This document shows, piece after piece, positions 1-53,145 of a stretch of DNA of 53,145 nt. Source of the stretch: Shigella phage 2019SD1; the sequence record MT360681, one strand, 5' to 3'. A program made the translations under genes and the position numbers. Numbering within the stretch: position 1 is the first letter of the stretch; each line of letters begins with the position of its first letter. The notes beneath the pieces were generated by a model, which saw nothing but the letters and a program-made list of their open reading frames with translations, had not been told where the DNA came from and searched no databases.

Positions 1-178
1 CGGTAACGTGTTTAAAACGGAATCACGAATCGTTAAGGCTGACGGCTATAATGAGATCTTTAAGGGCGAGAATTGCAAATCGCGAGTAGAGCAACCATTC
101 TACATGCAATCAATGCCATACAAGACTCTTGCTGACTTTTACGAAAAAGATGGCACGGCAAAAGGGTTATTGACGGCA

Positions 179-1375
179 GATGAGGCGGCATTCCGTTCCT
201 TGTGGGATGAGAAGCGACTCAATGCAAAAATTATTGATGCGCTTTGTTGGTCGCGTTTGTTTGGTGGATCTGCAATCATTGCTCTTGTTCAGGATGGGCG
301 AGCGCTCAAATCACCTGTAAAGCCCGGTGCCATGCTGGAAGATGTGCGCGTTTATGATCGTTATCAGATTCGCGTTGAAGCGCGCGAAACTAATCCCCGC
401 AAGGTTCGCTATGGTGAGCCAGTGCTTTACACTGTAACGCCGGTGGAGACTTGCCGGAATACCGGTACACTACACGCGAGTTTGCATTATCGATGGGCAA
501 CGCAATTATTGCGGCGGAAGCAGCAGGCAGTATGGAAAGCTAAAGGACTCGCTGACTTGTGCGATGATGAGGAAGGTGTTAGCGCGGCACGCCTGAGACT
601 TGCGCAGGTTGACGATGAGGGTGGAGTAGGCAAGGCTATTGGTATTGATGCTGAGGATGAGGAATATGATGTTCTTAACTCCGACATTAGCGGAGTTGAT
701 TCTTTCTTGAAAAGAAAATGGATCGCATTGTTTCCCTTTCAGGTATTCATGAAATCATCCAGTAAATCACGAATCGTTAAGGCTGACGGCTATAATGAGA
801 TCTTTAAGGGCGAGAATTGCAAATCGCGAGTAGAGCAACCATTCTACATGCAATCAATGCCATACAAGACTCTTGCTGACTTTTACGAAAAAGATGGCAC
901 GGCAAAAGGGTTATTGACGGATCGCATTGTTTCCCTTTCAGGTATTCATGAAATCATCCTGAAAAATAAAAACGTTGGCGGCGTTAGCGCAAGCCAAAAC
1001 ACGGCGCTTGAAACATTCTATAAACTTATTGAGCGAAAACGCGTTGAGGATTACAAGCCTATTCTTGAATTTCTATTACCGTTCATCATTAGTGAGCAGG
1101 AGTGGAGCATTGAGTTTTCACCTTTGAGCGTGCCTAGCGATAAAGATCAGGCTGAAATTCTGAATAAGAATATCGACTCAATCAGCAAGGCTATTGATGG
1201 TCAGTTCCTTGATGTTGAAGAAGCGCGAGACACGTTGCGAGCAATCGCCCCAAGCGTTAAACTAAAGGACACTAATAAAATCAAGCTGCCGGAGCCAGCG
1301 GAGCCGGAGCCGAGCACACAGGGAATGAGTAGACGCTTTACGGTCAATGGCACGGCCTTGCAGAGTCATCGCTAA
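179..1375 (+). CDS. Portal protein (probable); 5' end wraps to about 53035 at window end; carries a 156-bp displaced duplicate insert at 765-920
   Basis: Long ORF directly downstream of large terminase and upstream of MuF-like head gene; acidic C-terminal tail typical of portals; window positions 1-178 are mosaic copies of other regions. Confidence 0.45.
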   Translation, partial: DEAAFRSLWDEKRLNAKIIDALCWSRLFGGSAIIALVQDGRALKSPVKPGAMLEDVRVYDRYQIRVEARETNPRKVRYGEPVLYTVTPVETCRNTGTLHASLHYRWATQLLRRKQQAVWKAKGLADLCDDEEGVSAARLRLAQVDDEGGVGKAIGIDAEDEEYDVLNSDISGVDSFLKRKWIALFPFQVFMKSSSKSRIVKADGYNEIFKGENCKSRVEQPFYMQSMPYKTLADFYEKDGTAKGLLTDRIVSLSGIHEIILKNKNVGGVSASQNTALETFYKLIERKRVEDYKPILEFLLPFIISEQEWSIEFSPLSVPSDKDQAEILNKNIDSISKAIDGQFLDVEEARDTLRAIAPSVKLKDTNKIKLPEPAEPEPSTQGMSRRFTVNGTALQSHR

Positions 1376-25104: not shown

Positions 25105-25156
25105 GACGCTTGTCCGGTTCTGTAAATTGCGCAATTTACAGAACCGGACAAGCGTC
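25105..25156. repeat. Perfect 52-bp palindrome
   Basis: GACGCTTGTCCGGTTCTGTAAATTGC / GCAATTTACAGAACCGGACAAGCGTC. Confidence 0.8.
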
Positions 25157-25337
25157 AAAACAACGACGCAGGATGGTCGCCAATCGTTTGTGGAGGTAGT
25201 CAGTCGCAATGGGGTTATGCTCTAAAATCAGCTTTCGGAACTATTGCTAATAACCAAGCTTGGCCTGATACAGCTATACACCACTCATTCGCCCCGGTGC
25301 AACAATCTTTTTCATTGATGCACCGTTTCAAGCGGCT

Positions 25338-27494
25338 GTGATTGGTGATAACGCTCATAACAGGATGTTTTATTTTCTCATACCGGGACGTCGGGTTGGT
25401 CCTTTTGATAGTGTTGGTGCTAATACGATTATTTACTCGCCAGACGGATCTTATAGGTTGGTTATCAGAGATGACGGATTACTAGTTTATCAGAAAGGTG
25501 ACGGAACTGAAACCAAGCCATTTGAAATTGCGACTGGTGGGACTGGGGCAACTGATGCAGCAGGTGCTCGCAATAATCTTGGGCTTGGCAGCTATACACC
25601 ACTCATTCGCCCCGGTGCAACAATCTTTTTCATTGATGCACCGTTTCAAGCGGCTGTGATTGGTGATAACGCTCATAACAGGATGTTTTATTTTCTCATA
25701 CCGGGACGTCGGGTTGGTCCTTTTGATAGTGTTGGTGCTAATACGATTATTTACTCGCCAGACGGATCTTATAGGTTGGTTATCAGAGATGACGGATTAC
25801 TAGTTTATCAGAAAGGTGACGGAACTGAAACCAAGCCATTTGAAATTGCGACTGGTGGGACTGGGGCAACTGATGCAGCAGGTGCTCGCAATAATCTTGG
25901 GCTTGGGACTGGGCAAGACGTTCAATTTAAGAGCATTACGGCTACAGACGGCGATATTCTAGTTCCGCAAACTCACGTTGTAGGATGTAAAACTAATACT
26001 GGCGGTAACAAAAATATCTATCTGACGAACTTACCGGAGAATCAACTTCAGGTGGGTGGGACTGGCGCTCAATCTGCAAATAACGCCGCTGAAACTGCAA
26101 AAACGGCGCTGTTACGGCGCGAAATGAGGCTGAGGAATTTGCTAAAAGCCTTAATGCTGAAAATCTACCATGTATTGCTGGGCGACGCTCAAGGTTATAT
26201 CACTGGATACGATACGAAATGGCGAGAGCAATTAACACTCATTCGCCCCGGTGCAACAATCTTTTTCATTGATGCACCGTTTCAAGCGGCTGTGATCAGT
26301 GAAGTTATCAGCGATACACAAATCCGCGCTATCACAACTGGCGGCGCTGAAATTGGGCGGAGCAACTACATTATTTTGCTGCATGACTCAATCACTGTTG
26401 ATGGCCCGGCGCAAGATGTTGCGGAAACTCTGCGTTACTATCAAAGCAAAGAAACTCAGATCGAGGAAGCTATTGAATTTTTCAAAAACTTTGATCTAAA
26501 ACAGTTGCAAGATCTGGCTAATCAGGTTAAAGGTGATGCAGAGAAAACAGCCAATGATCGTGCTGCTACTGAACAACTGAAAAACGACACTCAACATATA
26601 AAGGATTCTGCTGTTGCTGAAACAAACCAGATTAAAGCAGACACTAACGCAATCAAGGCGCAAACACAACAGATTAAAGATTCTGCGATAACGGAAGTTA
26701 ATTCCGCACGCGATCAAGGTGTTTTAGCTGTAAACCAGACTAAAGATCAGGCTGTTTCAGAAATGAATCAGATAAAGGGTGATGTTTCGAATCTGAAAAC
26801 GAAGCTATTTCAGCAAGGGATTCAGCCCAGCAATACATGGCAATGGACGCTCAAGGTTATATCACTGGATACGATACGAAATGGCGAGAGCAATATCAGT
26901 GAAGTTATCAGCGATACACAAATCCGCGCTATCACAACTGGCGGCGCTGAAATTGGGCGGAGCAACTACATTATTTTGCTGCATGACTCAATCACTGTTG
27001 ATGGCCCGGCGCAAGATGTTGCGGAAACTCTGCGTTACTATCAAAGCAAAGAAACTCAGATCGAGGAAGCTATTGAATTTTTCAAAAACTTTGATCTAAA
27101 ACAGTTGCAAGATCTGGCTAATCAGGTTAAAGGTGATGCAGAGAAAACAGCCAATGATCGTGCTGCTACTGAACAACTGAAAAACGACACTCAACATATA
27201 AAGGATTCTGCTGTTGCTGAAACAAACCAGATTAAAGCAGACACTAACGCAATCAAGGCGCAAACACAACAGATTAAAGATTCTGCGATAACGGAAGTTA
27301 ATTCCGCACGCGATCAAGGTGTTTTAGCTGTAAACCAGACTAAAGATCAGGCTGTTTCAGAAATGAATCAGATAAAGGGTGATGTTTCGAATCTGAAAAC
27401 GAAGCTATTTCAGCAAGGGATTCAGCCCAGCAATACACATGCGTTTTCTCCCGTGTTGCATGTTAATGTCAATGCAGATAATAGCATTTGCTAA
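25338..27494 (+). CDS. Long tail fibre protein; 318-bp tandem duplication (25271-25588, 25589-25906), 600-bp tandem duplication (26297-26838 and 26897-27438) and frame disruption near 26100
   Basis: N-terminal ..GGTGATDAAGARNNLGLG.. motif common to phage tail fibres; long coiled-coil-like repeats rich in A/T/N/Q/K. Confidence 0.6.
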   Translation: MIGDNAHNRMFYFLIPGRRVGPFDSVGANTIIYSPDGSYRLVIRDDGLLVYQKGDGTETKPFEIATGGTGATDAAGARNNLGLGSYTPLIRPGATIFFIDAPFQAAVIGDNAHNRMFYFLIPGRRVGPFDSVGANTIIYSPDGSYRLVIRDDGLLVYQKGDGTETKPFEIATGGTGATDAAGARNNLGLGTGQDVQFKSITATDGDILVPQTHVVGCKTNTGGNKNIYLTNLPENQLQVGGTGAQSANNAAETAKTALLRREMRLRNLLKALMLKIYHVLLGDAQGYITGYDTKWREQLTLIRPGATIFFIDAPFQAAVISEVISDTQIRAITTGGAEIGRSNYIILLHDSITVDGPAQDVAETLRYYQSKETQIEEAIEFFKNFDLKQLQDLANQVKGDAEKTANDRAATEQLKNDTQHIKDSAVAETNQIKADTNAIKAQTQQIKDSAITEVNSARDQGVLAVNQTKDQAVSEMNQIKGDVSNLKTKLFQQGIQPSNTWQWTLKVISLDTIRNGESNISEVISDTQIRAITTGGAEIGRSNYIILLHDSITVDGPAQDVAETLRYYQSKETQIEEAIEFFKNFDLKQLQDLANQVKGDAEKTANDRAATEQLKNDTQHIKDSAVAETNQIKADTNAIKAQTQQIKDSAITEVNSARDQGVLAVNQTKDQAVSEMNQIKGDVSNLKTKLFQQGIQPSNTHAFSPVLHVNVNADNSIC

Positions 27495-27495
27495 G

Positions 27496-27516
27496 TCAAA
27501 AAACCCGCAATGCGGG
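27496..27516 (-). terminator. Hairpin with T-run on minus strand
   Basis: CCCGC-AAT-GCGGG preceded by AAAAAA on plus strand. Confidence 0.35.
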
Positions 27517-27535
27517 GCGAAAGTAGCAGTGACAT

Positions 27536-28470
27536 GATCCAACCAACTCCGGTATCATTACCGCACACGTTGCAGATCGCACCGCCATCGCCTTTTTATC
27601 GCCAAGTTTATCCGTCCATCTGAAGCGATCCTTTCCGCCGCAGTGGGGCTTTTCATTGATGAAGAAGGTAAACAGTCTTTTCTAGCAAAGGACTACACGC
27701 GCGGGTCGGTTGTGAGAACAGGAAACACCGATAAGACTATCTATCTTTGCGTTGACTGGATTGATGCGCAACATATTCACCTTGCAACTGGTCAAGAGGT
27801 TTGGGCCTGCTTCGATGCAACTAATATTGAGATTGTAGCTTACAGGTATAAAGGCAACAGAAGAATGCGAGTTGTCTGTAAGAGTACAGACCGTGACGCT
27901 ATCATAGCTGCCGAGGAAAGAGGTCTTGAAATTATGATGCCGATTAATGATAATTACAGGCAAGGGATAGACAGGAAGGTTTACAAACCTGAATCTCTTC
28001 TCAAGCTAACCGGAGAACCTTACAGCGAAGTGATCAATATTTTGGGCCGTTTTCTTGGGAAAGTTCCACAGGACTATAGAATCAAGGCAAATAAGCGAGT
28101 ATCTCGTGATTCTGGTTATTCGTTTGGGAAACAGGCAAGTCATGAATGCTGCGAGCGCGTTATGTCAAAAACATTAAAATTTGATCGCACGCCGTTAAGC
28201 ACATATGAAGGAATATACCCGCCTGAAGATGGTTATTATGAATGCGGCGTAAAAGATGGTCGATACATTCACGCGTTACCATGTTACCGGTGCATTCAGA
28301 TGAAATTGATGATGAAATGTGCAATGTGCTTTTCATTGATGAAGAAGGTAAACAGTCTTTTCCCCCACTGCGGCGGAAAGGATCGCTTCAGATGGACGGA
28401 TAAACTTGGCGATAAAAAGGCGATGGCGGTGCGATCTGCAACGTGTGCGGTAATGATACCGGAGTTGGTT
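27536..28470. repeat. Segment bounded by ~115-bp perfect inverted repeats (27536-27650 and 28354-28470) plus 34-bp direct repeats (27648-27682, 28320-28353)
   Basis: Exact reverse-complement identity of the two outer arms. Confidence 0.8.
27643..28319 (+). CDS. Hypothetical protein encoded inside the inverted-repeat-flanked segment
   Basis: Open frame across the internal segment; GTG start; no recognisable motifs. Confidence 0.25.
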
Positions 28471-28622
28471 GGATCACAAGATTGATGCTTGCCGTTAAAA
28501 ACTTCATTTGGAAGACCGCAAATACTTTGTAGCGCCTCACGCCACAATCCTTGCATATATGGGAGTACATCTTCCTTTTGATAAACCATAAAGTTTTCGT
28601 TATTCATATACACCTCAAACAA
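28354..28622 (-). CDS. Hypothetical protein, N-terminal part only (frame ends inside inverted repeat)
   Basis: Minus-strand start at 28622; protein-like N-terminus MFEVYMNNENFMVYQKEDVLPYMQGLWREALQ.. Confidence 0.25.
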
Positions 28623-28645
28623 AAAGCCTGACAGATGATAACATC

Positions 28646-29158
28646 ATGCCGGGCATTGTTTTTCTTATTGAGTATTACGGCAGCGTGTCAGCAATGTCAA
28701 GCCGTGCTTTTAGTCCAGCGCGAAAGAACAGCGAATCGCGGTATCAACTGGCAAGATTGACAAACGCACAATCAATGGCAATAACGGAACTCGACGGGGT
28801 AAAGATAAGAAAAGCGCAAGCGCCCTACAGGATACTATGTTTTAAAAGAGCAAAGCGTCTTAACGTTAGCCAGCAAACTGTAAATCAGTGGCGTGTTCGC
28901 GGTATGATTTCAGCCGCTGGCGCTCAAAAGGTGCATAACGATTACAAGAAATATGGTTGTCAAGGCTATCGCGCGTCATTCTGCCGTCCAGACCTGCGAT
29001 TTGATTCCAATGGAAAACCGCTCACAAAGAGATGTGATAAGCGTGAAATGTTGCGAGTAGTAAGAATGTCAGATTATGAACCCGGCGGATTCCTGTATAA
29101 ACCTGAAAGCACTAATTGCCATTATTCATTCTCCAATAGCATTTTTGTTAAACAATGA
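28646..29158 (+). CDS. Hypothetical DNA-binding protein (HTH-like)
   Basis: Segment ..RLNVSQQTVNQWRVRGMIS.. resembles a helix-turn-helix. Confidence 0.3.
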   Translation: MPGIVFLIEYYGSVSAMSSRAFSPARKNSESRYQLARLTNAQSMAITELDGVKIRKAQAPYRILCFKRAKRLNVSQQTVNQWRVRGMISAAGAQKVHNDYKKYGCQGYRASFCRPDLRFDSNGKPLTKRCDKREMLRVVRMSDYEPGGFLYKPESTNCHYSFSNSIFVKQ

Positions 29159-31206: not shown

Positions 31207-31303
31207 TGCAATATGTGAATCACATCATGCCACCATCGCGTGTGACTCACCGCAAGACTAGCAAGGAGAAGATAATTTGTACAAGAAGGAGTTTAATTAT
31301 GGC

Positions 31304-31808
31304 AATGACTGATAAAGGCGATTATCTGGAGTTTTACGAAAGAGATCCGACGGATACGCTAAAGGAGGAATCACACCAGATCGGGGCGTTTCAATGGTTA
31401 ACTTATGCTCATCCTGAATTTCTTGCCGGCATACGAAAACGAGGGCGACAAGGGATCGCCACCGCAATGATGGATCAGCAAGCAGGACTCGTTAAGGGAG
31501 TAAGTGATTTCATCATCCTGATTGGATTAAAGGCCGTTATCCGTTCGCGGCAAGCAATGACTGATAAAGGCGATTATCTGGAGTTTTACGAAAGAGATCC
31601 GACGGATACGCTAAAGGAGGAATCACACCAGATCGGGGCGTTTCAATGGTTAACTTATGCTCATCCTGAATTTCTTGCCGGCATACGAAAACGAGGGCGA
31701 CAAGGGATCGCCACCGCAATGATGGATCAGCAAGCAGGACTCGTTAAGGGAGTAAGTGATTTCATCATCCTGATTGGATTAAAGGCCGTTATCCGTTCGC
31801 GGCAATAG
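31304..31808 (+). CDS. Hypothetical nuclease-like protein (VRR-NUC-like, tentative); exact tandem 252-bp duplication (31303-31554, 31555-31806)
   Basis: AGGAG RBS plus ATG at 31304; ..GLVKGVSDFIILIG.. loosely resembles VRR-NUC motif. Confidence 0.3.
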
Positions 31809-31900: not shown

Positions 31901-32653
31901 ATGGCGCAATCCTTCGCGCCTGTTTTAACAAAAGTGCTATTTCATCATGTATTCTACAGCGATCATGAATTGCTTATATCCGTATGTTACGGCAGCGAAT
32001 CCGCCAAGCTCACGCACGCGGCGCAAGAAGGCTTTAGTAAAGAAACTGAAGTGACATTTGAACAAATAGAACGAGAAACATTCATTGGCAATGCTCTTGC
32101 TACTGGAGGCCATTACCGTGCCGTTAAACCAAATCAATATTATAAAGTCACTGGCAACCGCTATAACGGCAGCAACACGCCTGACATTGTGCGCGATTTG
32201 TGGTCCACGCCGTCAGAGGTTGTCGAATGGATGGAAAGCGAATACGGTGATTATGACATCGACGCGGCGGCAAGCAAAGAAAACGCTGTATGTGAAAAAT
32301 TCTACAGCAAGGAAACAAATTGCTTAAAGCGTTGGTGGGGTAGTAATAAGCATATCTGGCTGAATCCACCGTACAGCAATATAACGCCTTTCGTTAAGAA
32401 AGCGATTGAGCAAATGGAGCACAATAACCAGATCGACATTCTGTTGCCTTGCGACACATCGACAGGATGGTTTTATGAGGCACAACAGAAAGCAGCGGAA
32501 ATCATCTGGATCACTGGCGAAGTTTACCGGAGGACGGAACAGAATATTCCCGCACAGGACGCCTTGCTTTCACTTCAGCGCTTACAGGTAAACCAGTGCA
32601 GGAAACAACAAAGGAAGCGTTATTTTCATCATGCGCGAACTGAAAGAAGGTGA
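31901..32653 (+). CDS. dam: DNA N6-adenine methyltransferase (phage Dam family); C-terminus probably frame-disrupted
   Basis: ..WSTPSEV..DIDAAAS..HIWLNPPYS.. motifs (NPPY catalytic motif) as in phage Dam-type methyltransferases. Confidence 0.6.
   Translation: MAQSFAPVLTKVLFHHVFYSDHELLISVCYGSESAKLTHAAQEGFSKETEVTFEQIERETFIGNALATGGHYRAVKPNQYYKVTGNRYNGSNTPDIVRDLWSTPSEVVEWMESEYGDYDIDAAASKENAVCEKFYSKETNCLKRWWGSNKHIWLNPPYSNITPFVKKAIEQMEHNNQIDILLPCDTSTGWFYEAQQKAAEIIWITGEVYRRTEQNIPAQDALLSLQRLQVNQCRKQQRKRYFHHARTERR
31921..31942 (-). promoter_or_regulatory. Conserved promoter-like motif copy, leftward orientation, inside start of Dam ORF
   Basis: TGTTTTAACAAAAGTGCTATTT. Confidence 0.3.
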
Positions 32654-32968: not shown

Positions 32969-32990
32969 AAATAGCACTTTTGTTAAAACG
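32969..32990 (+). promoter_or_regulatory. Conserved promoter-like motif copy
   Basis: AAATAGCACTTTTGTTAAAACG followed by hairpin GCCCGG..CGGGC and CATAAT. Confidence 0.5.
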
Positions 32991-36040: not shown

Positions 36041-36280
36041 TTCAATTCTCTTTACAGTAACCAACAAAACGCCGTCATCATCACACAAATTATGCTCTGA
36101 TATGTTAAACGCTCGCATGTCAGAATGAATGAGCGTTAACATTGCGTGCATGAAGTCTTCATGTGAGATTTGAGAAGTAGCGCAAAACTTAAGAATTTCA
36201 TCTATCAGTTTACTTTCCATGATTTTCATGATAACCAAGTTTAGCCTCTGCTTGTTCTCTTGCCATAATTGCATCATCAA
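36038..36280 (-). CDS. Hypothetical protein (80 aa)
   Basis: Minus-strand ORF ending at the bidirectional terminator. Confidence 0.4.
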   Translation of the reverse strand: MMMQLWQENKQRLNLVIMKIMESKLIDEILKFCATSQISHEDFMHAMLTLIHSDMRAFNISEHNLCDDDGVLLVTVKRIE

Positions 36281-36324
36281 TGCTTGAAAATAATCCTAAA
36301 TGAACACTCTTACCTTTATCATAT

Positions 36325-36978
36325 ATGGTTGCATGCCATTTTTTCTTTCTTCCTCCAGCACACCCCTATTCCATTGTCATATATAAATATTTTATTCCAA
36401 TCGATTGGAATAAAATATTTATATATGACAATGGAATATTGTGGGAAATGCACAATGGAAAAATACCAGAAGGAATGGAGATAGATCATATATGGCACAA
36501 TAGGTGGGATAACAGGATTGAAAATTTAAGGCTTGCATCAAGATTAGAGAACAGCAAAAACGTATCTCTACTAAAAAGAAATAAATCTGGTAGGGTTGGG
36601 GTGTGCTGGAGGAAGAAAGAAAGGTGGAGAAACAGAAGGGGAAAAGCAAAGCACGGAAGCGTTGCTGGATGTGTAGATAAAAATGGCTATGTAAGAATAA
36701 GGTATAATGGTGTATTGCTTTTGGCACATAGGATAATATGGGAAATGCACAATGGAAAAATACCAGAAGGAATGGAGATAGATCATATATGGCACAATAG
36801 GTGGGATAACAGGATTGAAAATTTAAGGCTTGCATCAAGATTAGAGAACAGCAAAAACGTATCTCTACTAAAAAGAAATAAATCTGGTAGGGTTGGGGTG
36901 TGCTGGAGGAAGAAAGAAAAAATGGCATGCAACCATATACATATCTTTTCCTTAGAGCTTTTATTTGTTGTCTATTAA
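36325..36978 (+). CDS. HNH homing endonuclease with AP2-like DNA-binding domain; internal ~180-297-bp duplication (36442-36620 approx = 36739-36917)
   Basis: ..NGYVRIRYNGVLLLAHRIIWEMHNGKIPEGMEIDHIWHNRWDNRIENLRLASRLENSKN.. classic HNH motif; ..KSGRVGVCWRKK.. AP2-like. Confidence 0.65.
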   Translation: MVACHFFFLPPAHPYSIVIYKYFIPIDWNKIFIYDNGILWEMHNGKIPEGMEIDHIWHNRWDNRIENLRLASRLENSKNVSLLKRNKSGRVGVCWRKKERWRNRRGKAKHGSVAGCVDKNGYVRIRYNGVLLLAHRIIWEMHNGKIPEGMEIDHIWHNRWDNRIENLRLASRLENSKNVSLLKRNKSGRVGVCWRKKEKMACNHIHIFSLELLFVVY

Positions 36979-36996: not shown

Positions 36997-37500
36997 CTTC
37001 ATCGCTCATTTCTCCGATCCGTAAAACATCCCTAACCCATTCGTTTTGCATACCTTCCGGGCTGTAAAGTTCAAACGAGAAAGGTCGATTTGCGGATCCT
37101 TTCTTACACCAGAACTTTCCATCAACTCCATCTGCTGCATTCAGGAACTGAACTGAGCGAGCAATGTTGCGCGCCAACTTTCCAACAACATCAACATCAT
37201 TGCCAAGAGAAATTACAGGGTAGCGATCATTTCCGTTATTAACATCATTAACCTCACCCCAAAAGCTGGACGATTGACGGTATCCGTTTGCCTGAATGGA
37301 CACGCGCACCGGAGACAATCCTTGTGCATCAGCTAATTCGATAATTTGTTTTGGTGTTAGTTTGTTGGTTTCAAACGAAAAATTCGAGTTGATGGAAAGT
37401 TCTGGTGTAAGAAAGGATCCGCAAATCGACCTTTCTCGTTTGAACTTTACAGCCCGGAAGGTATGCAAAACGAATGGGTTAGGGATGTTTTACGGATCGG
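36997..37500. repeat. Fold-back structure: ~95-bp perfect inverted repeats (36997-37090 and 37405-37500) flanking a ~315-bp segment that codes on the minus strand
   Basis: 37405-37500 is the exact reverse complement of 36997-37090; best reading frame of the enclosed segment is on the minus strand whereas the continuing gene is on the plus strand. Confidence 0.8.
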
Positions 37501-38747
37501 AGAAACTTGGACGCTTCACGGTTGAGTATCACGGAACGGATCAGCCGACCGCTCTTTATGTTGTCACAAGCCAGCCTCCTTCAACTGGTAAATCTGCCGT
37601 TAACAGCCCGGCACTTGCTCCAATGGTTGCAGAAGTAGAAAGAATTAACGATCAGCGAAAGAAGGAAAGAAAAAGATTCAGGCAAAGTTGGCAGGTCTTG
37701 CAAAAGAGACTTGGACGCTTCACGGTTGAGTATCACGGAACGGATCAGCCGACCGCTCTTTATGTTGTCACAAGCCAGCCTCCTTCAACTGGTAAATCTG
37801 CCGTTAACAGCCCGGCACTTGCTCCAATGGTTGCAGAAGTAGAAAGAATTAACGATCAGCGAAAGAAGGAAAGAAAAAGATTCAGGCAAAGTTGGCAGGT
37901 CTTGCAAAAGAGAAGCAAAACATACATTAGCGCCGCCAACGCTTCTGGCTATGCTGGTGATGATGCTGAAATGGGTAAACTAATCGAGATCATCACTCGA
38001 CACGGCAAGGCTAATAAGGGGATCTTGAATGTGCGCGCCATATATGAGGCTGCACGAAAAGTTAAGCCGTTTGTTGGTCAGGCTGGCGTAATGAAGCGTA
38101 TGGAAACGCAACTGCTGCCGATGCTTGAAGAAAGAAATTATATTTGTGTGATTAATGGCGTTGTTTTTGTAAATCCAACATTGCTGGGGAGTGAATCAAA
38201 CATCCAGCTTAAGATCAGCAAATCAGCAATGCGAGTTCTTAACATGGCTCGTCAGGAGATGGAACCGCACCTTGCTGATGGAGGAAAGTATTCGCATACA
38301 ATGCTGCGCGGCGCGCTTGGCAAAATGGATAAGCAGGTGATCAGGATTGCTTCAGTTTTGCACACTATCCGCAACTGGTTTAATCGGCGGATACCCTCAA
38401 AAGTCGAAAGAGATCTGAAAGCATGGGATCACGGTCATGTTTCTATAGCTCGTGCAAACGCTGACAACAATATGAGTTTTAAAGCTCTTGGCTGTATGGC
38501 GGTAATTGCCCGTGATGAAACAATCAATGCCATCATGGATGCAGGATCGCGCGGTATCGGTGTGAGTGAGCGTTATTTGCTTGTGCGTGAGGAATCATTT
38601 TGTGACATCGTTTTCCCTGTGTCCGACACCACGCCGGAAGGACTTGCAAGAATCAACAATCGCCGGGGTAACTTTGCTGTGATTTCAGACGAGGCAACGA
38701 GTATTAACAGCCTTATTGATGATAACTCCTTTTTGATGCGGCAATAA
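37500..38747 (+). CDS. Putative replication protein with P-loop-like motif (primase/helicase-type, tentative); tandem 204-bp duplication (37506-37709, 37710-37913); native N-terminus probably lies in the inverted segment upstream
   Basis: ..VVTSQPPSTGKSAV.. Walker A-like; long ORF in replication region. Confidence 0.3.
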   Translation, partial: EKLGRFTVEYHGTDQPTALYVVTSQPPSTGKSAVNSPALAPMVAEVERINDQRKKERKRFRQSWQVLQKRLGRFTVEYHGTDQPTALYVVTSQPPSTGKSAVNSPALAPMVAEVERINDQRKKERKRFRQSWQVLQKRSKTYISAANASGYAGDDAEMGKLIEIITRHGKANKGILNVRAIYEAARKVKPFVGQAGVMKRMETQLLPMLEERNYICVINGVVFVNPTLLGSESNIQLKISKSAMRVLNMARQEMEPHLADGGKYSHTMLRGALGKMDKQVIRIASVLHTIRNWFNRRIPSKVERDLKAWDHGHVSIARANADNNMSFKALGCMAVIARDETINAIMDAGSRGIGVSERYLLVREESFCDIVFPVSDTTPEGLARINNRRGNFAVISDEATSINSLIDDNSFLMRQ

Positions 38748-38769
38748 TACCGCACCAATGCTACCCGCA

Positions 38770-38788
38770 TTTAACAAAAATGCTATTT
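38770..38788 (-). promoter_or_regulatory. Conserved promoter-like motif copy (variant), leftward orientation
   Basis: Minus-strand reading AAATAGCATTTTTGTTAAA followed by stem-loop TGCGG-TATTATT-CCGCA. Confidence 0.4.
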
Positions 38789-39239: not shown

Positions 39240-39292
39240 CGTTTATTTCTCCTTTCGTTTCGGTGAAGTGATTATGCCGTGCTTTTACACCG

Positions 39293-39314
39293 CTTTTAAC
39301 AAAAGTGCTATTTT
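39293..39314 (-). promoter_or_regulatory. Conserved promoter-like motif copy
   Basis: Minus-strand reading AAATAGCACTTTTGTTAAAAG then stem CGGTG..CACCG enclosing CATAAT, RBS and ATG. Confidence 0.55.
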
Positions 39315-39845: not shown

Positions 39846-39978
39846 CTTAATGAAATATTCGCCGTGATTGCCTTCATCAGAAAACTTCCAACCCCAAAGA
39901 ACATTACTTGCAGATAACTTTCATCGTTTATTTCTCCTTTCGTTTCGGTGAAGTGATTATGCCGTGCTTTTACACCGC

Positions 39979-40000
39979 TTTTAACAAAAGTGCTATTTTG
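39979..40000 (-). promoter_or_regulatory. Conserved promoter-like motif copy inside 102-bp displaced duplicate (39225-39326 = 39911-40012)
   Basis: Identical to copy at 39293-39314. Confidence 0.4.
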
Positions 40001-41412: not shown

Positions 41413-41551
41413 TCTTTAAATCCTCGTTCGTTGTCGATGCGCTTAATATACCAATCAGAGGCGCATCGGTTTTAACAAAAGTGCTATTAGTCCAGAATTC
41501 GATTTCGCGCTCGCCAGTTAACGGATCTTTAATCCAGAATCCGAGCGGCAT
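41413..41551 (-). CDS. Small hypothetical ORF reading through the promoter motif (stop not resolved)
   Basis: Strong GAAGGAGAAATAAAG RBS plus ATG at 41551 (minus). Confidence 0.2.
41468..41489 (-). promoter_or_regulatory. Conserved promoter-like motif copy
   Basis: Minus-strand reading TAATAGCACTTTTGTTAAAACC then 7-bp stem GATGCGC..GCGCATC enclosing TATATT. Confidence 0.55.
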
Positions 41552-42075: not shown

Positions 42076-42136
42076 TGCTATCTCCTGATGGGTATCTCGT
42101 TTCGATGTGTCTAATGTACCCGATCAGGGCAATTCA

Positions 42137-42157
42137 GTTTTAACAAAAGTGCTATTT
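42137..42157 (-). promoter_or_regulatory. Conserved promoter-like motif copy
   Basis: Minus-strand reading AAATAGCACTTTTGTTAAAAC then imperfect stem enclosing TACATT, RBS AGGAGA, ATG. Confidence 0.55.
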
Positions 42158-42229: not shown

Positions 42230-42740
42230 TGTGAGAACTTGAGTTTGATCAATTTTAATCAAGTGATTAACTTTTTGTGTGGAGGGATAGAGAAATGCGG
42301 TCCTCTTGCGCCCTTTCCGGCAATCCCGGCGCGCACATCTGTTATCTTCTGTTATCGCTGTTATGCGTGTTATTCCGGCGTGGAATCGCATAACAAAAAT
42401 AACAAGATAAATCCATATAACATACTAAAAATAAGGATTATTTATTTATATGTATCTATAAATTACTATCTGTTATGTGTGTTGTGTGGTCATATTGATG
42501 TCTGATGTATTCTTGGTGATTGTGTGTGGTTGTGTGTTGGCAGGTATGTATATATGGGGTGGGGGCGAATCCGCGCATTTTTAGATAACACGCCAAAATA
42601 ACATTGATTTATAAGGAGAAAAACGAGAATCTTGTTGTGTTCTGAAAAGGCAACATTGAAAAACTGCCAATAACAATAAAAACATTTGACGCGCCAGAAT
42701 GGTAAATGATAATGCAGCCACTGAATCACGAGAGGGTATA
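42230..42740. promoter_or_regulatory. Divergent intergenic control region between minus-strand and plus-strand early gene blocks; AT-rich with GTGT-rich repeats
   Basis: No ORFs; repeats similar in style to 19930-20130 (TTATGTGTG, GTGGTTGTGTGTTGG). Confidence 0.4.
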
Positions 42741-42744
42741 AAGC

Positions 42745-43085
42745 ATGAGTGAATCTGTATTTACAAATGAGCTTCGCAAGGTTGCGACTGCGCTCGCATC
42801 TGGAACACATGAATCTATTCAGATACCTGAAAGATGGGTAAGGCAGCACCGGAGGGTAAGAAGTCAGCCAGCAATGCCGGATCATATCTGCGTCAGATTA
42901 TGGGGCGCGTTCCAGAAGTGGCGGAGAAGGGTAGAGTTTCAGTATCAAAGAAACCTTACGGCCCTGATAGCGAATATTTCGGCGAAAATTACTTTGATGT
43001 GGCGATTGTTAGTGCGCCTAATCGCAGGGTGTACAACAAGGCGGCGCTTGAGAAGGCTGTAGCGAAAGCAAAACGCCGTTGCTGA
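42745..43085 (+). CDS. Hypothetical early protein (frame change near 42835)
   Basis: GAGAGGGTATAAAGC plus ATG; two overlapping ORFs that join into one with a 1-bp correction. Confidence 0.35.
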
Positions 43086-43223
43086 GTCAATGCTTAAAGT
43101 TTCACCAAGCCCGGCGAACTACTCGCCAGATGAATATGAAACACTTGCTAAGGCGATTGCAGACTTTCACGCGATCATTAAAGAAACATATCTTAACGAT
43201 GAGGAGAATTTGACTCTGACCGG

Positions 43224-43244
43224 AAATAGCACTTTTGTTAAAAC
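43224..43244 (+). promoter_or_regulatory. Conserved promoter-like motif copy
   Basis: AAATAGCACTTTTGTTAAAAC followed by CATAAT and hairpin, then RBS and ATG at 43323. Confidence 0.55.
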
Positions 43245-43322
43245 TCAAAAACGATAACCAAGCATAATAAATCACATAGGGCGGCACGGCGTCGCCCACA
43301 AAACCAATCAGGAGAAATCACC

Positions 43323-43631: not shown

Positions 43632-44774
43632 TTGTGGTGCTTAAGCGTGGATAACATCAAGTATCCGATCACGTTCCACACGGTTGGTAACTCAACTATT
43701 CGATTCACATCTCGCGACAATGGCGTTTATAGCGACGGTCAGAAATCAGAGTTGAAAGTTGATTTCTTTGTCAATGGTCACAACAAATTCAATCCGCACA
43801 ACGAAAAAGATAAGGTGTACTACGTGGAAGATATTACAAAACACTTGTTTGGCGAAACTCCATTCGGCGGCGGGAAGACGTCAATTCAACAAATCATTGA
43901 CGATCAGATCCGCAAGGCAGCCGTTGAAATGAAAGCGCCCGGAGGCTGGCGTATTGATAAGGGCGCCTTTACCATTCAAGAAATCGTAACGCAGGGCGCG
44001 ATTGAAGACATGCCGCTTGGCGCTTCAATCATCGGCATCAAAGACGACAACGGCGACTGGCAGGATGTTTCATTCCTGTTAAGCAGATCGAAGTACACGA
44101 CGACCTGTTTTGCCTCCCGGCGCATCATGGCAGCTACAAGGGCAAAGCCTTTGCCGCAGAGCTTGACATCAAGCGCGGAACGATTGTTAAGTGGAAGGCA
44201 AAAGTGTAAAGATAACATCAAGTATCCGATCACGTTCCACACGGTTGGTAACTCAACTATTCGATTCACATCTCGCGACAATGGCGTTTATAGCGACGGT
44301 CAGAAATCAGAGTTGAAAGTTGATTTCTTTGTCAATGGTCACAACAAATTCAATCCGCACAACGAAAAAGATAAGGTGTACTACGTGGAAGATATTACAA
44401 AACACTTGTTTGGCGAAACTCCATTCGGCGGCGGGAAGACGTCAATTCAACAAATCATTGACGATCAGATCCGCAAGGCAGCCGTTGAAATGAAAGCGCC
44501 CGGAGGCTGGCGTATTGATAAGGGCGCCTTTACCATTCAAGAAATCGTAACGCAGGGCGCGATTGAAGACATGCCGCTTGGCGCTTCAATCATCGGCATC
44601 AAAGACGACAACGGCGACTGGCAGGATGTTTCATTCCTGTTAAGCAGATCGAAGTACACGACGACCTGTTTTGCCTCCCGGCGCATCATGGCAGCTACAA
44701 GGGCAAAGCCTTTGCCGCAGAGCTTGACATCAAGCGCGGAACGATTGTTAAGTGGAAGGCAAAAGTGTAAATAG
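43632..44774 (+). CDS. Hypothetical early protein; exact tandem ~561-bp duplication (43650-44210, 44211-44771); C-terminus frame-disrupted
   Basis: 380-aa ORF consisting of two identical 187-aa units. Confidence 0.35.
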   Translation: MWCLSVDNIKYPITFHTVGNSTIRFTSRDNGVYSDGQKSELKVDFFVNGHNKFNPHNEKDKVYYVEDITKHLFGETPFGGGKTSIQQIIDDQIRKAAVEMKAPGGWRIDKGAFTIQEIVTQGAIEDMPLGASIIGIKDDNGDWQDVSFLLSRSKYTTTCFASRRIMAATRAKPLPQSLTSSAERLLSGRQKCKDNIKYPITFHTVGNSTIRFTSRDNGVYSDGQKSELKVDFFVNGHNKFNPHNEKDKVYYVEDITKHLFGETPFGGGKTSIQQIIDDQIRKAAVEMKAPGGWRIDKGAFTIQEIVTQGAIEDMPLGASIIGIKDDNGDWQDVSFLLSRSKYTTTCFASRRIMAATRAKPLPQSLTSSAERLLSGRQKCK

Positions 44775-46133: not shown

Positions 46134-46315
46134 TTTGGTTACTTGTATTTTTATTGGTTTTCTTTTATATTTCAGGATTATTCATATTCCGCGCATTGGT
46201 TAAAGTGTGTGATTGCACTGATAAAGATCAGCCTCTTGTTCTGATGTTCTGGTTTGTGTGGTTTTGGGTGGCGCTTTACCAGATTGTGCGGGATGAAAGC
46301 GGCTTTAAGTGGTGA
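46130..46315 (+). CDS. Small membrane protein
   Basis: Hydrophobic N-terminal half MIWLLVFLLVFFYISGLFIF. Confidence 0.35.
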   Translation: MIWLLVFLLVFFYISGLFIFRALVKVCDCTDKDQPLVLMFWFVWFWVALYQIVRDESGFKW

Positions 46316-46397
46316 TTCTTACTATAGCGCATTCATGCAGTGAAGAAGAAGCGCTACAGCTACGACGAGCACCGCGAGAGCGTCGTTTAAACAGCCT

Positions 46398-46946
46398 ATG
46401 TTTGATATTGCATTCTCAATGCTTGGCGTTTACCGATATGACGAGTTCATTGATCTGTATTTTGATATTGCATTCTCAATGCTTGGCGTTTACCGATATG
46501 ACGAGTTCATTGATCTGTATAACGACCGCGAGCAGAAAGAAAAGCCTCAAGCAATCTTGCAAGGAAAGTCGCCGCGCCAGTTCATGATCTGGATTAGCGA
46601 AGAAGTCATGAAGCCAGCTTTTGGCGAGCAGTATTTCGGAAATCGCATGGTTGAGCAAGTGCACGAGATGTACAGAGATTTGGCTGTTGTAATTAGTGAT
46701 GGCGGATTCACTGAAGAAATCAAGCCGCTCATTAAGGCAGGCCATGAAGTTCACATTTGCAGACTGCATCGCGAAGGTTTTACGTTTGATGGCGATTCGC
46801 GAAACTATATTGACCTGAGCGGATACCATCACCGAGTAAAACATTACGACTTCACAATGATTGATGGCGATCCAGAAAAACTGTTGACGAGATCATCAAA
46901 ACTATCCAGTGGAAACACATTAAGATCAAATAGCACGAATTGCTAA
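46398..46946 (+). CDS. Hypothetical protein; 63-bp tandem duplication at N-terminus (46398-46460, 46461-46523)
   Basis: ORF; stop embedded in promoter motif 46928-46949. Confidence 0.3.
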   Translation: MFDIAFSMLGVYRYDEFIDLYFDIAFSMLGVYRYDEFIDLYNDREQKEKPQAILQGKSPRQFMIWISEEVMKPAFGEQYFGNRMVEQVHEMYRDLAVVISDGGFTEEIKPLIKAGHEVHICRLHREGFTFDGDSRNYIDLSGYHHRVKHYDFTMIDGDPEKLLTRSSKLSSGNTLRSNSTNC

Positions 46947-46949
46947 AAC
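46928..46949 (+). promoter_or_regulatory. Conserved promoter-like motif copy (CGAATTG variant)
   Basis: AAATAGCACGAATTGCTAAAAC followed by GGTT-GCGGTATAGT-AACC. Confidence 0.55.
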
Positions 46950-47005
46950 AGATTAAAGGGGTTGCGGTATAGTAACCACACACCAAGCAACGAAAGGAAA
47001 TGACA

Positions 47006-47299
47006 ATGCGAGTTTTAATTGTTTACGAAACAAATCCAGACGGCGTCAATTTCTATGATATCGAAATGACAAGCGAACAATATGAGATCGTGAAAACCGC
47101 GCAAGGTAAGTTTATTAATTGCCACGAGGACACGCCGGGGACTGAATACCTCAACATTGCGCTATGTTCAAATCTTGAATATCTGGACGAATGCGATCAG
47201 TCTCTTCCTCATGCGTGCGCATGGAAAGATAAAACAATCATTGATCTGGAAAACCCAGCCAAGTTTGATGCAATCATTTACACTGGGATTATGTGCTAA
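47006..47299 (+). CDS. Hypothetical protein
   Basis: AAAGGAAATGACA plus ATG; downstream of promoter motif. Confidence 0.45.
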   Translation: MRVLIVYETNPDGVNFYDIEMTSEQYEIVKTAQGKFINCHEDTPGTEYLNIALCSNLEYLDECDQSLPHACAWKDKTIIDLENPAKFDAIIYTGIMC

Positions 47300-47319
47300 A
47301 TAGCACGAATTGCCAAAAG
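47298..47319 (+). promoter_or_regulatory. Conserved promoter-like motif copy (CGAATTG variant)
   Basis: AAATAGCACGAATTGCCAAAAG followed by TATAAT. Confidence 0.5.
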
Positions 47320-47373
47320 CGGGGTGCAATGCCTCGCTATAATGCAAACACCAATCAACGAGAGGGCTTGAAC

Positions 47374-47778
47374 ATGTTAGAACTTCACAAAATCCGCGTA
47401 GGCACAAAATTTGTTGTAACACGGGTATGTGGTGAGATGTGCGGTATTCGTAAAGGCGAGATTGTAACGGCTTCAGATCGCTATATCGGATCGACCAAAG
47501 AGTTTAACAGACCACGCATCAAGAATGGCTATATCATAACTCGCCGTTTGGGATTTGATCATTATTGCGTAGTGGCAACTCAAGGCGTTTTGATTGAGCT
47601 TAAGCGAATCAGCGATCATCGCGGCTGCCATATTAAGACAATGAAAACACCATTTCAGCGAGCGCGATACGATGCGCGACGGATGCGCCGACTTGCTCGA
47701 AATGCGATCAAGTTCAAAAAGCACGGCAGTAATTTTTACAGAACGTACAAAGGGATTGCGCGAAATGATGGGAAATAA
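47374..47778 (+). CDS. Hypothetical basic protein
   Basis: GAGAGGG RBS plus ATG; downstream of promoter motif 47298-47319. Confidence 0.45.
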   Translation: MLELHKIRVGTKFVVTRVCGEMCGIRKGEIVTASDRYIGSTKEFNRPRIKNGYIITRRLGFDHYCVVATQGVLIELKRISDHRGCHIKTMKTPFQRARYDARRMRRLARNAIKFKKHGSNFYRTYKGIARNDGK

Positions 47779-47908
47779 CAACAACGCAACCAATCCTAAG
47801 CCGCCATTTGATTTTCATGAAATCATGATTGTGTTATTCTTGATTCTCTTAGTTTTTATTCAGTGAGGGCAGCACTATGGTTTTAATGCACTAAAACGAA
47901 TCTTCACT

Positions 47909-48265
47909 ATGGAGTTCAATAGCTACAGTGAGGCGCGTGAATACGCTAAAAATTGCACAAGTTCATACCTTACAAGCTGCGTTTGCTGGTTGTCAAAAGT
48001 GCGACGTATGGGATCACGTATGAAAAGAGTAATTATCACTTTTATTGCCCTTATCGCTGGTTCCCATTTGGCTTATGGGTATAGCGGCATTGTTGAGTCA
48101 GTCGGCGGAATGATTATCTTCTGGCTGGCGCATATTACGGCTACGGCGATGGATTTAAAATGGCAAGCGTTACATCCTGACCGGGAAGAAATAATGTTTA
48201 ACCGCGCCGCTTCGGTGGCGCTAAAAGGAGGAAACAAATGGCTAAAAGCAATCGTAAGATGTTGA
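47909..48265 (+). CDS. Hypothetical membrane protein (start uncertain, possibly 48020)
   Basis: Hydrophobic segments ..VIITFIALIAGSHLAYGYSGIVESVGGMIIFWLAHI.. Confidence 0.3.
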   Translation: MEFNSYSEAREYAKNCTSSYLTSCVCWLSKVRRMGSRMKRVIITFIALIAGSHLAYGYSGIVESVGGMIIFWLAHITATAMDLKWQALHPDREEIMFNRAASVALKGGNKWLKAIVRC

Positions 48266-48525
48266 TTAACGCATTCGAAAAGGCAGCGCTTGAGCGTGGT
48301 TGGAATGACTCATTCCACACAGCAAATTGCATCCGACGTTACGGATTCAAGAATTGCCGCTCTTGGGCGCGTCAAATGGCTTCATGGTATGATCTTGATG
48401 CGCATTACCTTGATATGGATTGCGCCCTTGTTGAAATGATTGAGCAGGCCGCACTAGAGGATCGACCATTAACGCAATCTGATTTTGACGATTTTGTGCG
48501 CGATGAAATCTATTACATGAGCTAA
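48238..48525 (+). CDS. Hypothetical protein
   Basis: AAAGGAGGAAACAA plus ATG; stop overlaps promoter motif 48523-48543. Confidence 0.45.
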   Translation: MAKSNRKMLINAFEKAALERGWNDSFHTANCIRRYGFKNCRSWARQMASWYDLDAHYLDMDCALVEMIEQAALEDRPLTQSDFDDFVRDEIYYMS

Positions 48526-48543
48526 TAGCACTTTTGTTAAAAC
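48523..48543 (+). promoter_or_regulatory. Conserved promoter-like motif copy
   Basis: TAATAGCACTTTTGTTAAAAC followed by stem-loop GAGG..CCTC. Confidence 0.5.
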
Positions 48544-48599
48544 TTCCGCGAGGGCATTTGTTAAAGTGTCCTCATTGAAGCGAAACAGAGGAAATCAAA

Positions 48600-50809: not shown

Positions 50810-51250
50810 ATGACAAAGGCGCACAAGTACACGCCGGAACAGGTATTTGATCTGGCTGTGCGTTACTTTACGTGGGCCGAGGAAAACCATATAGAGGCTG
50901 CGGAAACTGCATCCTTTCAGGGTGACGTATACGAAAGCAAGATTCACAAGCCGCGCGTGTTCACCTTAAATGGATTCCGCTTATTCGCTGGCCTTTCTGC
51001 TTCCGTACTTGAAAAATGGCGACGTGAGCGAGGATTCAGCGAGGTTATGGACTTTATTGACGGCGTTGTTTATGAGCAAAAATTCCAGCTTGCCGCAAAC
51101 AATATTGTTAACGCCGGATTCATTGGTAAGGAGATCGGCATTGAAAAGCCAGCTACCGTTACCATTGAGAATAACACAAGCGCCAGCGTTGACGCTGTAA
51201 CGGCGGATGAAGTCAAAGAGGCGGTAATTGACATTCTGGAGAAGATATAA
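50810..51250 (+). CDS. Terminase small subunit (probable)
   Basis: 146-aa ORF immediately upstream of large terminase; N-terminal ..YTPEQVFDLAVRYFTWAEEN.. typical of small terminase DNA-binding regions. Confidence 0.5.
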   Translation: MTKAHKYTPEQVFDLAVRYFTWAEENHIEAAETASFQGDVYESKIHKPRVFTLNGFRLFAGLSASVLEKWRRERGFSEVMDFIDGVVYEQKFQLAANNIVNAGFIGKEIGIEKPATVTIENNTSASVDAVTADEVKEAVIDILEKI

Positions 51251-51257
51251 TGCTGAT

Positions 51258-51520
51258 ATGATCAAGATCAATCCCGTTCAGCGAGATAAAGATAAGGTTA
51301 CGCGAGCAATGGACGCAGCGCCAGTAATGCGCGCCGGACGCGTGGCACTTCCAGAATATCATCCTATGCTGGCTGAGATACTCGCTGAAGTTGCGGCGTT
51401 CACATTCGATGATTCGCATCCTCATGATGATATTGTTGATAACATCATTGATGCTGTTAACATTGAAATGAACATGGCAGATGATCCGGTAGGAAGAATG
51501 AAAAATTGGCAGGTTTGCGG
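51258..51520 (+). repeat. Displaced copy of the large-terminase C-terminal coding segment (more complete than the copy at 52796-52980), fused to a promoter-motif copy
   Basis: 51258-51520 matches 52796-52980 except that the downstream copy lacks ~75 bp; occupies the position where the terminase N-terminus would be expected. Confidence 0.75.
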
Positions 51521-51523
51521 AAC

Positions 51524-51545
51524 AAATAGCACGAATCGACAAACC
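51524..51545 (+). promoter_or_regulatory. Conserved promoter-like motif copy (variant) upstream of large terminase reading frame
   Basis: AAATAGCACGAATCGACAAACC. Confidence 0.3.
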
Positions 51546-51589
51546 AATATAGGAAGACTTAACAGCGGCGCAAAACGCGCCGTTAAGGA

Positions 51590-52982
51590 AATGAGCGAAT
51601 ATTCATTCGAAAAGATGATCCGCATTTGGTTTCAACTTCTCGGGGCAAAGGTTCTTAGGAAACTGGCATTTCAGTTACCTATGCAGCGAAGTGCAGGAGC
51701 TATGGCCGGAAAGCTGGCAAAGGCGAGCGCAAAGGACTTGATTGTAACCGATGTCGGCAAGGTTAAATTGCAAGTTAACTCGCGTTCTATCGGTGGTCAG
51801 GTTACTGGTCTGCGTGGCGGCTACATGGATGATGGATTTACTGGTATGCTGGTTCTTGATGATCCAGACAAGCCGGATGACATGCTTTCTAAGGTGAAGC
51901 GCGAAGCCGGACACATGCGCCTAAAGAACACGGTGCGATCACGTCGAATGAAGGACACAACGCCAATCGTAATGGTCCAGCAACGGCTACACGTCAATGA
52001 TTCAACATGGTTCATGACAAACGGCGGCATGGGCGGCATCCAGTTTAAGGTGGTCAGTATTCCGGCGCTCGTTACTAAGGAATATCGCGAAACGCTTCCT
52101 GATTGGTTAAAGCCTGAGTTTGATCGCGATGTTTTATCCAGTAAGCCAGTAATGATTGATGGTGTTGCTCATTATTCATTCTGGCCTGCTAAGAAAGCGC
52201 GGAGGAATTACTTGCACTTCGAAATGCTGATCCGTACACGTTCGCCAGTCAGTATCAGCAACAGCCTGTTGCGCTTGGCGGTAACGTGTTTAAAACGGAG
52301 TGGTTTCAGTATTACGGCAGCAGCGAGAAATGCACGCTACCAAAACCGGATCGCTTTGAGTATACATTTATCACGGTTGATACCGCGCAGAAAACGGGTG
52401 AGCTTAACGACTACTCCGTATAAAGATCGCGTTTACTTCATTGATGGTGTTCGCGGAAAATGGGAAGCACCAGACCTTGAAACTAATTTTGTTGCGTTCG
52501 TTAATCAGTGCTGGAAGCGTAATAAAGAATGCGGAACGTTGCGAAGGATTCATGTTGAAGATAAGTCATCTGGCACTGGCTTGATTCAGAGCGCAGCGAA
52601 AAAATTATATAAAGATCGCGTTTACTTCATTGATGGTGTTCGCGGAAAATGGGAAGCACCAGACGAAACTAATTTTGTTGCGTTCGTTAATCAGTGCTGG
52701 AAGCGTAATAAAGAATGCGGAACGTTGCGAAGGATTCATGTTGAAGATAAGTCATCTGGCACTGGCTTGATTCAGAGCGCAGCGAAAAATTATGATCAAG
52801 ATCAATCCCGTTCAGCGAGACTGGCTGAGATACTCGCTGAAGTTGCGGCGTTCACATTCGATGATTCGCATCCTCATGATGATATTGTTGATAACATCAT
52901 TGATGCTGTTAACATTGAAATGAACATGGCAGATGATCCGGTAGGAAGAATGAAAAAATTGGCAGGTTTGCGGAACAAATAA
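51590..52982 (+). CDS. Terminase large subunit (N-terminal region uncertain; internal frame change near 52195; 180-bp tandem duplication 52425-52610 approx)
   Basis: ..ADPYTFASQYQQQPVALGGNVFKTEWFQYYG.. and C-terminal ..FTFDDSHPHDDIVDNIIDAVN.. typical of terminase nuclease domain; Walker A-like ..SRGKGS.. only visible in a shifted frame near 51600. Confidence 0.55.
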
Positions 52983-52985
52983 TCA

Positions 52986-53012
52986 AAGGCTGGTAAATCC
53001 AGCCTTTTTATT
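52986..53012 (+). terminator. Rho-independent terminator after large terminase
   Basis: AGGCTGG-TAAAT-CCAGCCT followed by TTTTATT. Confidence 0.6.
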
Positions 53013-53034
53013 GAGGAAAGATATACCAGAGGAA

Positions 53035-53145
53035 ATGGTTTCCCGGCTTTACTGTTGACGGCGTGGCAGATGAGGCGGCATTCCGTTCCTTGTGGGATGA
53101 GAAGCGACTCAATGCAAAATTATTGATGCGCTTTGTTGGTCGCGT
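53035..53145 (+). CDS. Portal protein N-terminal segment (continues at position 179 after wrap)
   Basis: ATG at 53035 after AGGAAAG-like RBS and terminase terminator; downstream sequence identical to 179-255 apart from one A-run length difference; the frame needs a 1-bp correction. Confidence 0.35.

Follow-up and report, generated by a model that had tools for sequence, protein, structure and literature searches.

The last 81 nt of GenBank record MT360681 occur a second time close to the beginning of the record, which raises the question of whether its matching ends stem from circular closure of a contig, from a terminal repeat of virion DNA or from the way in which the record was put together. 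The window analyzed here, 53,145 nt in length, is this complete record, deposited for Shigella phage 2019SD1. The matching ends are real, but they are most probably (at roughly 85%) an artefact of record construction rather than a feature of the virus. NCBI assigns the phage to Hanrivervirus hv2019SD1 (Drexlerviridae, T1-like), with the record as the exemplar of that ICTV species, and membership in the genus agrees with a block-wise nucleotide identity of 94–96% to slyngel, herni, grams and PGN590 as well as with shared gene content.

The provenance of the record can be followed in databases and in the original publication. Eight ORFs of the window, and then six more, matched proteins of 2019SD1 exactly (QJT705xx and YP_0099013xx-14xx, out of a deposited range of QJT70530–QJT70605); the GenBank names of these proteins now carry the prefix UNVERIFIED_ASMBLY, an NCBI flag. 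The coordinates in Table S1 of the publication are those of the window, and the GC content is 44.5% in both (PMC8590004). That table lists a portal gene as ORF1 (8..1375, 69.12% to slyngel) and the large terminase gene, TerL, as ORF77 (51228..52982), with 64 ORFs directed rightward and 13 leftward (PMC8590004). The portal figure was reproduced by tblastn (338/489), and an exact look-up gave no match for the 892-aa ORF15, although it is present in Table S1. 2019SD1 was sequenced by ONT only, on a GridION R9.4 with Albacore 2.3.1 and Canu 1.8 and without short-read polishing, from a blunt/TA ligation library with a mean read length of 1.9 kb; the assembly was described as a “single scaffold of 73,606 bp”, and the result as a “53.15 Kb genome” (PMC8590004). 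IMG/VR carries the record as a complete viral genome, and a 36-mer specific to one of the rearranged junctions was found there only in IMGVR_UViG_2974632794_000001. A search of IMG/VR with the rebuilt native junction, aimed at an unscrambled copy of 2019SD1, returned only PGN590, and the record was not found in an INPHARED-based phage collection. Scrambling by a processing pipeline, a simulator or a generative model was considered and rejected: the junction was already in IMG/VR, the chimeric proteins stand in GenBank, RefSeq and UniProt, and the coordinates equal those of the table in the 2021 paper.

By local alignment and self-BLAST, positions 175–256 (82 nt) match 53065–53145 (81 nt) with 81 of 82 positions identical, the sole difference being A5 at 226–230 against A4 at 53116–53119. 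The initial annotation had read the overlap as 53069–53145 against 179–255 with one difference in A-run length, a span that lies inside this alignment, and the comparison it proposed of the last with the first bases is thus confirmed. The match of 175 with 53065 is a 1-nt coincidence, so the meaningful unit begins at 176 and 53066. Two further identities lie at the left end. Positions 1–21 are an exact copy of 52279–52299, a plus-strand piece internal to TerL; the copy had been noticed earlier, with its extent off by one base (1–20 from 52280–52299). Positions 21–176 equal 765–920 exactly (156/156), just as had been reported. The 21-mer has two matches in the window against zero expected from 100 shuffles, and none of the three end identities is due to chance. 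Only one of the two overlap copies reaches an end of the contig: the right copy runs to 53145, while the left one starts at 175, behind 174 nt that form a mosaic of TerL and portal sequence. The opening of about 175 nt had rightly been called mosaic. Removal of 1–174 and of one overlap copy leaves 52,890 nt, in keeping with the previous estimate of about 52.9 kb. The suspicion that even this length is inflated by artefactual duplications holds as well, given that later copies of earlier window sequence amount to 7,320 nt, with a unique remainder of 45.8 kb.

In slyngel (MT074433) and grams (MN850567), the TerL stop is followed by a hairpin terminator, an RBS and the portal ATG. The same native tail is kept on the plus strand at 52980–53023, with the TerL stop at 52980–52982, a terminator-like hairpin at about 52985–53009 and the portal RBS GAGGAAAGATA at 53013–53023. 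The stretch 52979–53023 matches the TerL–portal intergenic sequence of relatives up to the base before the ATG, and thus ends exactly where the portal ATG should come next. What comes instead is a deletion scar (53023..53024, plus strand), at which an ATG, a 159-nt body and a TAG are absent (slyngel 4695–4860). The absent piece is exactly the frameshift-truncated portal ORF, whose premature TAG is the product of a 1-nt deletion in an A5 run, and with it the true first 55 portal codons (the start codon and the next 54) were cut out. The excised N-terminal body is now found at 761–919 and, 4 nt shorter, at 21–175. Beyond the scar, 53024–53145 matches portal codons about 56–97 and continues colinearly into 257 onward. 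Within it, 53024–53065 (plus strand) holds native codons about 56–69, together with an ATG at 53035–53037, a TGA at 53056–53058 and a GTG at 53063–53065 that starts the next portal ORF fragment. The right overlap copy (53066–53145, plus strand) covers the initial 80 nt of this second fragment's body, in native position and truncated by the record end; its A4 at 53116–53119 is a 1-nt deletion relative both to relatives and to the left copy. The whole tail of 163 nt past the TerL stop is without annotation, and it is still native sequence.

When the pieces are put back in the order 52940–53023, ATG, 761–919, TAG, 53024–53064 and 175–492, the rebuilt sequence is colinear with slyngel 4590–5230, and indels relative to slyngel are confined to a T run, a GG, the A5 run and three CCWGG sites. 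Joining the record ends therefore restores the gene order of slyngel and grams. Because the large terminase gene directly precedes the portal gene in relatives, the end overlap is best read, on gene order, as reflecting the true TerL-to-portal adjacency in a record that wraps around. The earlier description of the contig as circularly closed captured this adjacency, which is real, but was overstated for an overlap that lies off the left extreme of a patchwork record.

The portal gene itself does not begin at 53035 and continue at 179, as had been thought most likely. The ATG at 53035–53037 aligns to an internal methionine, Met60, of the portal protein (PEEMVSPGF within ...VVPEEMVSPGF...), and its frame stops at the TGA at 53056–53058 because 2 nt of a CCTGG site have been lost between 53044 and 53045 (CCCCTGGC read as CCC--GGC). 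The frame that encodes PGFTVDGVADE is in turn closed by a TGA at 53012–53014, with no start codon between that stop and the homologous part. The annotated portal is instead a chimeric ORF at 8..1375 (QJT70530.1, window 8–1372), composed of five bodies: N-terminal (to 175), second (176–492), third (to 760), N-terminal again (761–919) and last (920–1372). Its start codon, GTG at 8–10, is supplied by the 21-nt TerL piece at 1–21, and the record begins 7 nt before it. The first copy of the N-terminal body (21–175, plus strand, codons 3–54) is identical to 765–919 and carries, near 167, the A5-to-A4 deletion that lies behind the premature TAG in the native sequence. The second body (176–492, plus strand) starts from portal codon 70, with a GTG before and a TGA after it in slyngel; its first 81 nt (176–256) are the left overlap copy, with the correct A5 at 226–230. 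A 40-nt plus-strand stretch at 721–760, present again at 920–959, is the overlap zone of two ORF fragments of the frameshifted portal (ATG 718–720 ... TGA 960–962) and flanks the inserted N-terminal fragment. This second copy of the N-terminal body (761–919, plus strand) comprises 53 codons (AGT...ACG), without its ATG and without its TAG, and is inserted in frame within the portal gene.

The fragments that were moved around in this way owe their edges to sequencing errors. Against slyngel, 285 indel events were counted in 45.5 kb, 277 of them not multiples of 3, which bears out the earlier view that indel errors break the frames of conserved genes. One-nt deletions far outnumber one-nt insertions (203 vs 25), and 85 of these 228 fall in runs of 5–6. 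The gap count stays at about 190 per 17.5 kb against each relative covering the full stretch (13 loci), while mismatches range from 3.1 to 6.3%; a constant gap count under varying mismatches indicates that the indels are specific to the window. Homopolymer runs of at least 6 number 6 in the window and 66 in slyngel. Depletion is complete for CCWGG sites, of which the window has 0 and slyngel 123 (relatives about 2 per kb). All 100 of the 100 aligned slyngel CCWGG sites are altered, 37 by deletion and 63 by recurrent substitution (CCTGG to CCCGG; CCAGG to CCGTG or CCGGG), and the patterns are strand-symmetric. CCGG is doubled in the window, and the density of GATC is normal. In Albacore-era consensus sequences, errors concentrate first in Dcm motifs and second in homopolymers (Wick et al. 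2019, PMC6591954). The profile of unpolished ONT R9.4/Albacore data, namely deletion bias, loss of long homopolymers and miscalled CCWGG, is shared by 2019SD1, which differs from the published profile in nothing material and represents an extreme case, with 0 of about 120 expected CCWGG sites left. This confirms the indel errors and their ONT signature. Typical examples of ONT error are the CCTGG deletion beside 53045 and the A4/A5 difference. For the latter, the portal frame is kept by A5, the run length of relatives, and the earlier reading of this difference as an indel-type sequencing error is upheld. The loss of all CCWGG sites implies full Dcm methylation of the virion DNA, through either the host or a cytosine methylase of the phage itself.

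Rearrangement of the record extends far beyond its ends. Natural Hanrivervirus genomes (slyngel, grams, herni, PGN590 and pSf-1) have the same gene content and overall order as 2019SD1, which departs from them in its roughly 130 rearranged blocks, in 7.3 kb of internally duplicated sequence and in the mostly frameshift-type indels counted above. Relative to slyngel, 131 blocks are duplicated, moved, inverted or deleted, in the form of exact tandem duplications of 100–560 nt, absent segments, swapped neighbors and, for genes encoded on the minus strand of relatives, inversion piece by piece; some 10 kb of slyngel has no counterpart in the window. The block edges follow codons. Blocks start directly after a start codon (ATG/GTG/TTG) in 32% of cases against a null of 6%, and end directly before a stop codon in 24% against 5%. 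Direct-repeat offsets are multiples of 3 in 29 of 36 instances (p = 8e-9), and 9 of the 21 tandem duplications sit between a start codon and a stop codon (null 0.8%, p = 2e-14). Seven published ORFs consist exactly of a start codon, twice the same unit and a stop codon, i.e., ORF8, 11, 16, 17, 26, 34 and 58 (6126–6569, 7866–8249, 12276–12659, 12691–12930, 22410–22841, 31299–31808 and 43647–44774). A few codons at most after each frameshift, a junction brings the sequence back into the homologous frame, and long ORFs consequently stay open across the junctions. The units of the patchwork are thus ORFs that exist only through sequencing errors, and the essential genes for portal, TerL, primase, helicases and tape measure are chimeric or lack segments. 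Some block edges lie off start and stop codons; the 21-nt TerL piece at position 1 has no obvious ORF edge as its boundary. Since some native intergenic DNA is kept, the record is more than ORFs strung together.

Two observations on individual regions may be added here. The C-terminal end of TerL, with 22 nt of downstream intergenic sequence, is present again directly after TerS (51258–51551 vs 52791–52981), so that the published 584-aa TerL begins with its own C-terminus. Genes on the minus strand of relatives appear as fragments that are each reverse-complemented in place, and thus plus-strand, at 17304–17575, 23716–29119, 31901–32035 and 37386–38714; the flipped genes are the tail-fibre-like gp40, the primase, a regulator, the second helicase and YdbL.

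Among the explanations other than record construction, two share the better, though still small, chances. Canu is known to leave overlapping ends, and the overlap could accordingly be an ordinary circularization overlap of a faithful contig, with only the first 175 nt or so derived from one chimeric read. Ends that are 81/82 identical and colinear across the junction, and a scaffold reported to be longer than the genome (PMC8590004), are what such a dovetail would leave behind. Overlaps of contig ends in headful/pac phages such as T1 and TLS likewise show the same sequence at both ends after assembly past one genome length, restore the TerL-to-portal order and place the break point arbitrarily with respect to the physical ends. 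Unlike a typical headful overlap, that of 2019SD1 has a left copy that begins only after 174 nt of pasted mosaic; the overlap edge is the edge of an ORF fragment, and the sequence between the ends is no faithful genome. A dovetail would start at position 1 rather than at 175/176, and its left edge would hardly coincide with the first base after the start codon GTG 53063–65. It would also leave unexplained that the piece lost at 53023|53024 is exactly ATG...TAG and that about 130 rearranged blocks with breakpoints at ORF edges lie elsewhere in the record, and we consider an ordinary overlap improbable.

Mis-assembly by Canu alone, without any annotation-aware editing, from short, noisy and possibly ligation-chimeric reads at very high coverage, is no more and no less probable. 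The methods documented for this genome do include short reads (mean 1.9 kb), blunt/TA ligation and Canu 1.8. Most junctions are blunt; microhomology, considered as a possible trace of template switching or de Bruijn mis-joins, amounts to 0–2 nt in most tandem junctions and to 5–6 nt in three, and a search of junctions for adapter, vector or barcode remnants (ONT, Illumina, Nextera, 454, Ion, PacBio, M13) gave only short matches at chance level. Breakpoints that directly follow start codons and directly precede stop codons are, however, beyond a sequence-agnostic assembler, as are in-frame offsets in 29 of 36 cases, seven ORFs of the form start, doubled body and stop, and systematic restoration of frames. 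A protein-guided assembler (PLASS/PenguiN-like) was considered for the frame restoration and rejected, given that Canu is the assembler named in the paper and that start codons are not part of the units.

The remaining alternatives take the sequence at face value. There is a very slight chance that a minority of the in-frame duplications are genuine, with a longer genome and an end repeat that is a real short terminal redundancy; candidates would be the duplications within the tape-measure gene or within tail-fibre genes (9608–12286, 15163–18771 and 25338–27494). That all duplications, inversions and translocations are real, through recombination, in-frame gene duplication or a defective variant, would suit the mostly in-frame duplications and open long ORFs, but is next to impossible with essential genes chimeric or incomplete, normal order in eight metagenomic and about 190 GenBank relatives, breakpoints that depend on ORFs made by sequencing errors and an assembly flagged as unverified by NCBI. 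Equally negligible is a genuine direct terminal repeat with fixed physical ends, for which one could cite the direct repeat found close to either end of a “complete genome” record: the repeat lies inside the portal CDS, 174 nt off the left end, its segment is single-copy in slyngel, grams and PGN590, its copies differ by a frameshifting homopolymer error, and the redundancy of T1-like pac/headful phages is kilobase-scale and variable (PMC11447400).

The origin of the matching ends in record construction can be pictured as follows. The packaging mode of T1-like phages is pac/headful, which leaves DNA that is terminally redundant and partly circularly permuted, as known for T1 and TLS (PMC11447400). 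From such terminally redundant, partly permuted virion DNA, a long-read assembly would be expected to run past one genome length, and the reported Canu scaffold of 73.6 kb compares with a genome of about 51 kb. In the unpolished ONT consensus, 1–2-nt homopolymer deletions and Dcm miscalls would then have broken the genes into short overlapping ORF fragments. After assembly, an annotation-aware step of cutting and pasting, by script or by hand and perhaps meant to obtain continuous CDSs, may have acted on the bodies of these fragments, with start and stop codons left off: it would have copied, relocated or removed them or turned them onto the sense strand, which let long ORFs read through. The deposited 53,145-nt sequence would then not be a contiguous part of such an assembly. 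To our knowledge, start and stop codons are not recognized by any assembler or biological process; together with the breakpoints at ORF edges, this leads us to infer annotation-aware editing. The inference draws solely on the statistics of the sequence, and the description in PMC8590004 holds no such step. The composite “portal” ORF1 would have been chosen as the beginning of the record, and a point 163 nt past the TerL stop as its end, and the 81-nt overlap would be the second portal ORF fragment, present once in native position and once pasted (176–492). The A4 and A5 copies could come from two separately called instances, which is plausible for a scaffold of 1.45 genome lengths. In any event, the end overlap carries no information on the physical ends of the phage.

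The overlap is biologically unimportant, and its value lies only in the warning that it gives about data quality. RefSeq and UniProt have been seeded with chimeric 2019SD1 proteins, as singleton clusters. They include the portal QJT70530.1/YP_009901391.1 (8–1375) and TerL QJT70605.1/YP_009901466.1 (51228–52982). The 455-aa “portal” has terminase codons first and contains its own N-terminus twice; the 584-aa TerL is scrambled, and the seven exactly doubled ORFs are also among the deposited entries. Phylogeny, protein-family building or model training that draws on these entries inherits the artefacts, and the ICTV species Hanrivervirus hv2019SD1 itself rests on the flawed record MT360681.

Three further observations concern 2019SD1 and its surroundings. 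Stretches at 18578–19776, 36171–36967, 42354–43223 and 46186–48156 are without a slyngel counterpart, and some such stretches match other Tempevirinae, e.g., a tonnikala-like HNH endonuclease at 36448–36978 (PMC8590004, table); they are probably ordinary mosaic variation rather than artefact. In GenBank, 21 unannotated “Campylobacter phage” records (49,946 bp, host Campylobacter jejuni; MG065649, MG065657 and MG065680 among them) are about 90% identical to 2019SD1, and their host assignment looks doubtful, possibly owing to contamination or mislabeling. Lastly, a conserved motif of about 20 nt, AAATAGCACTTTTGTTAAAA (given as the reverse complement of the strand searched), occurs nine times in the window, at 31921–31942, 32969–32990(-), 38767–38788, 39292–39313, 39977–39998, 41468–41489, 42136–42157, 43224–43245(-) and 48523–48544(-). 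It matches aaATAGCACnnnTTGnTAAAA, an intergenic repeat on record for TLS, T1 and Rtp, and is a real, already known element of T1-like phages.
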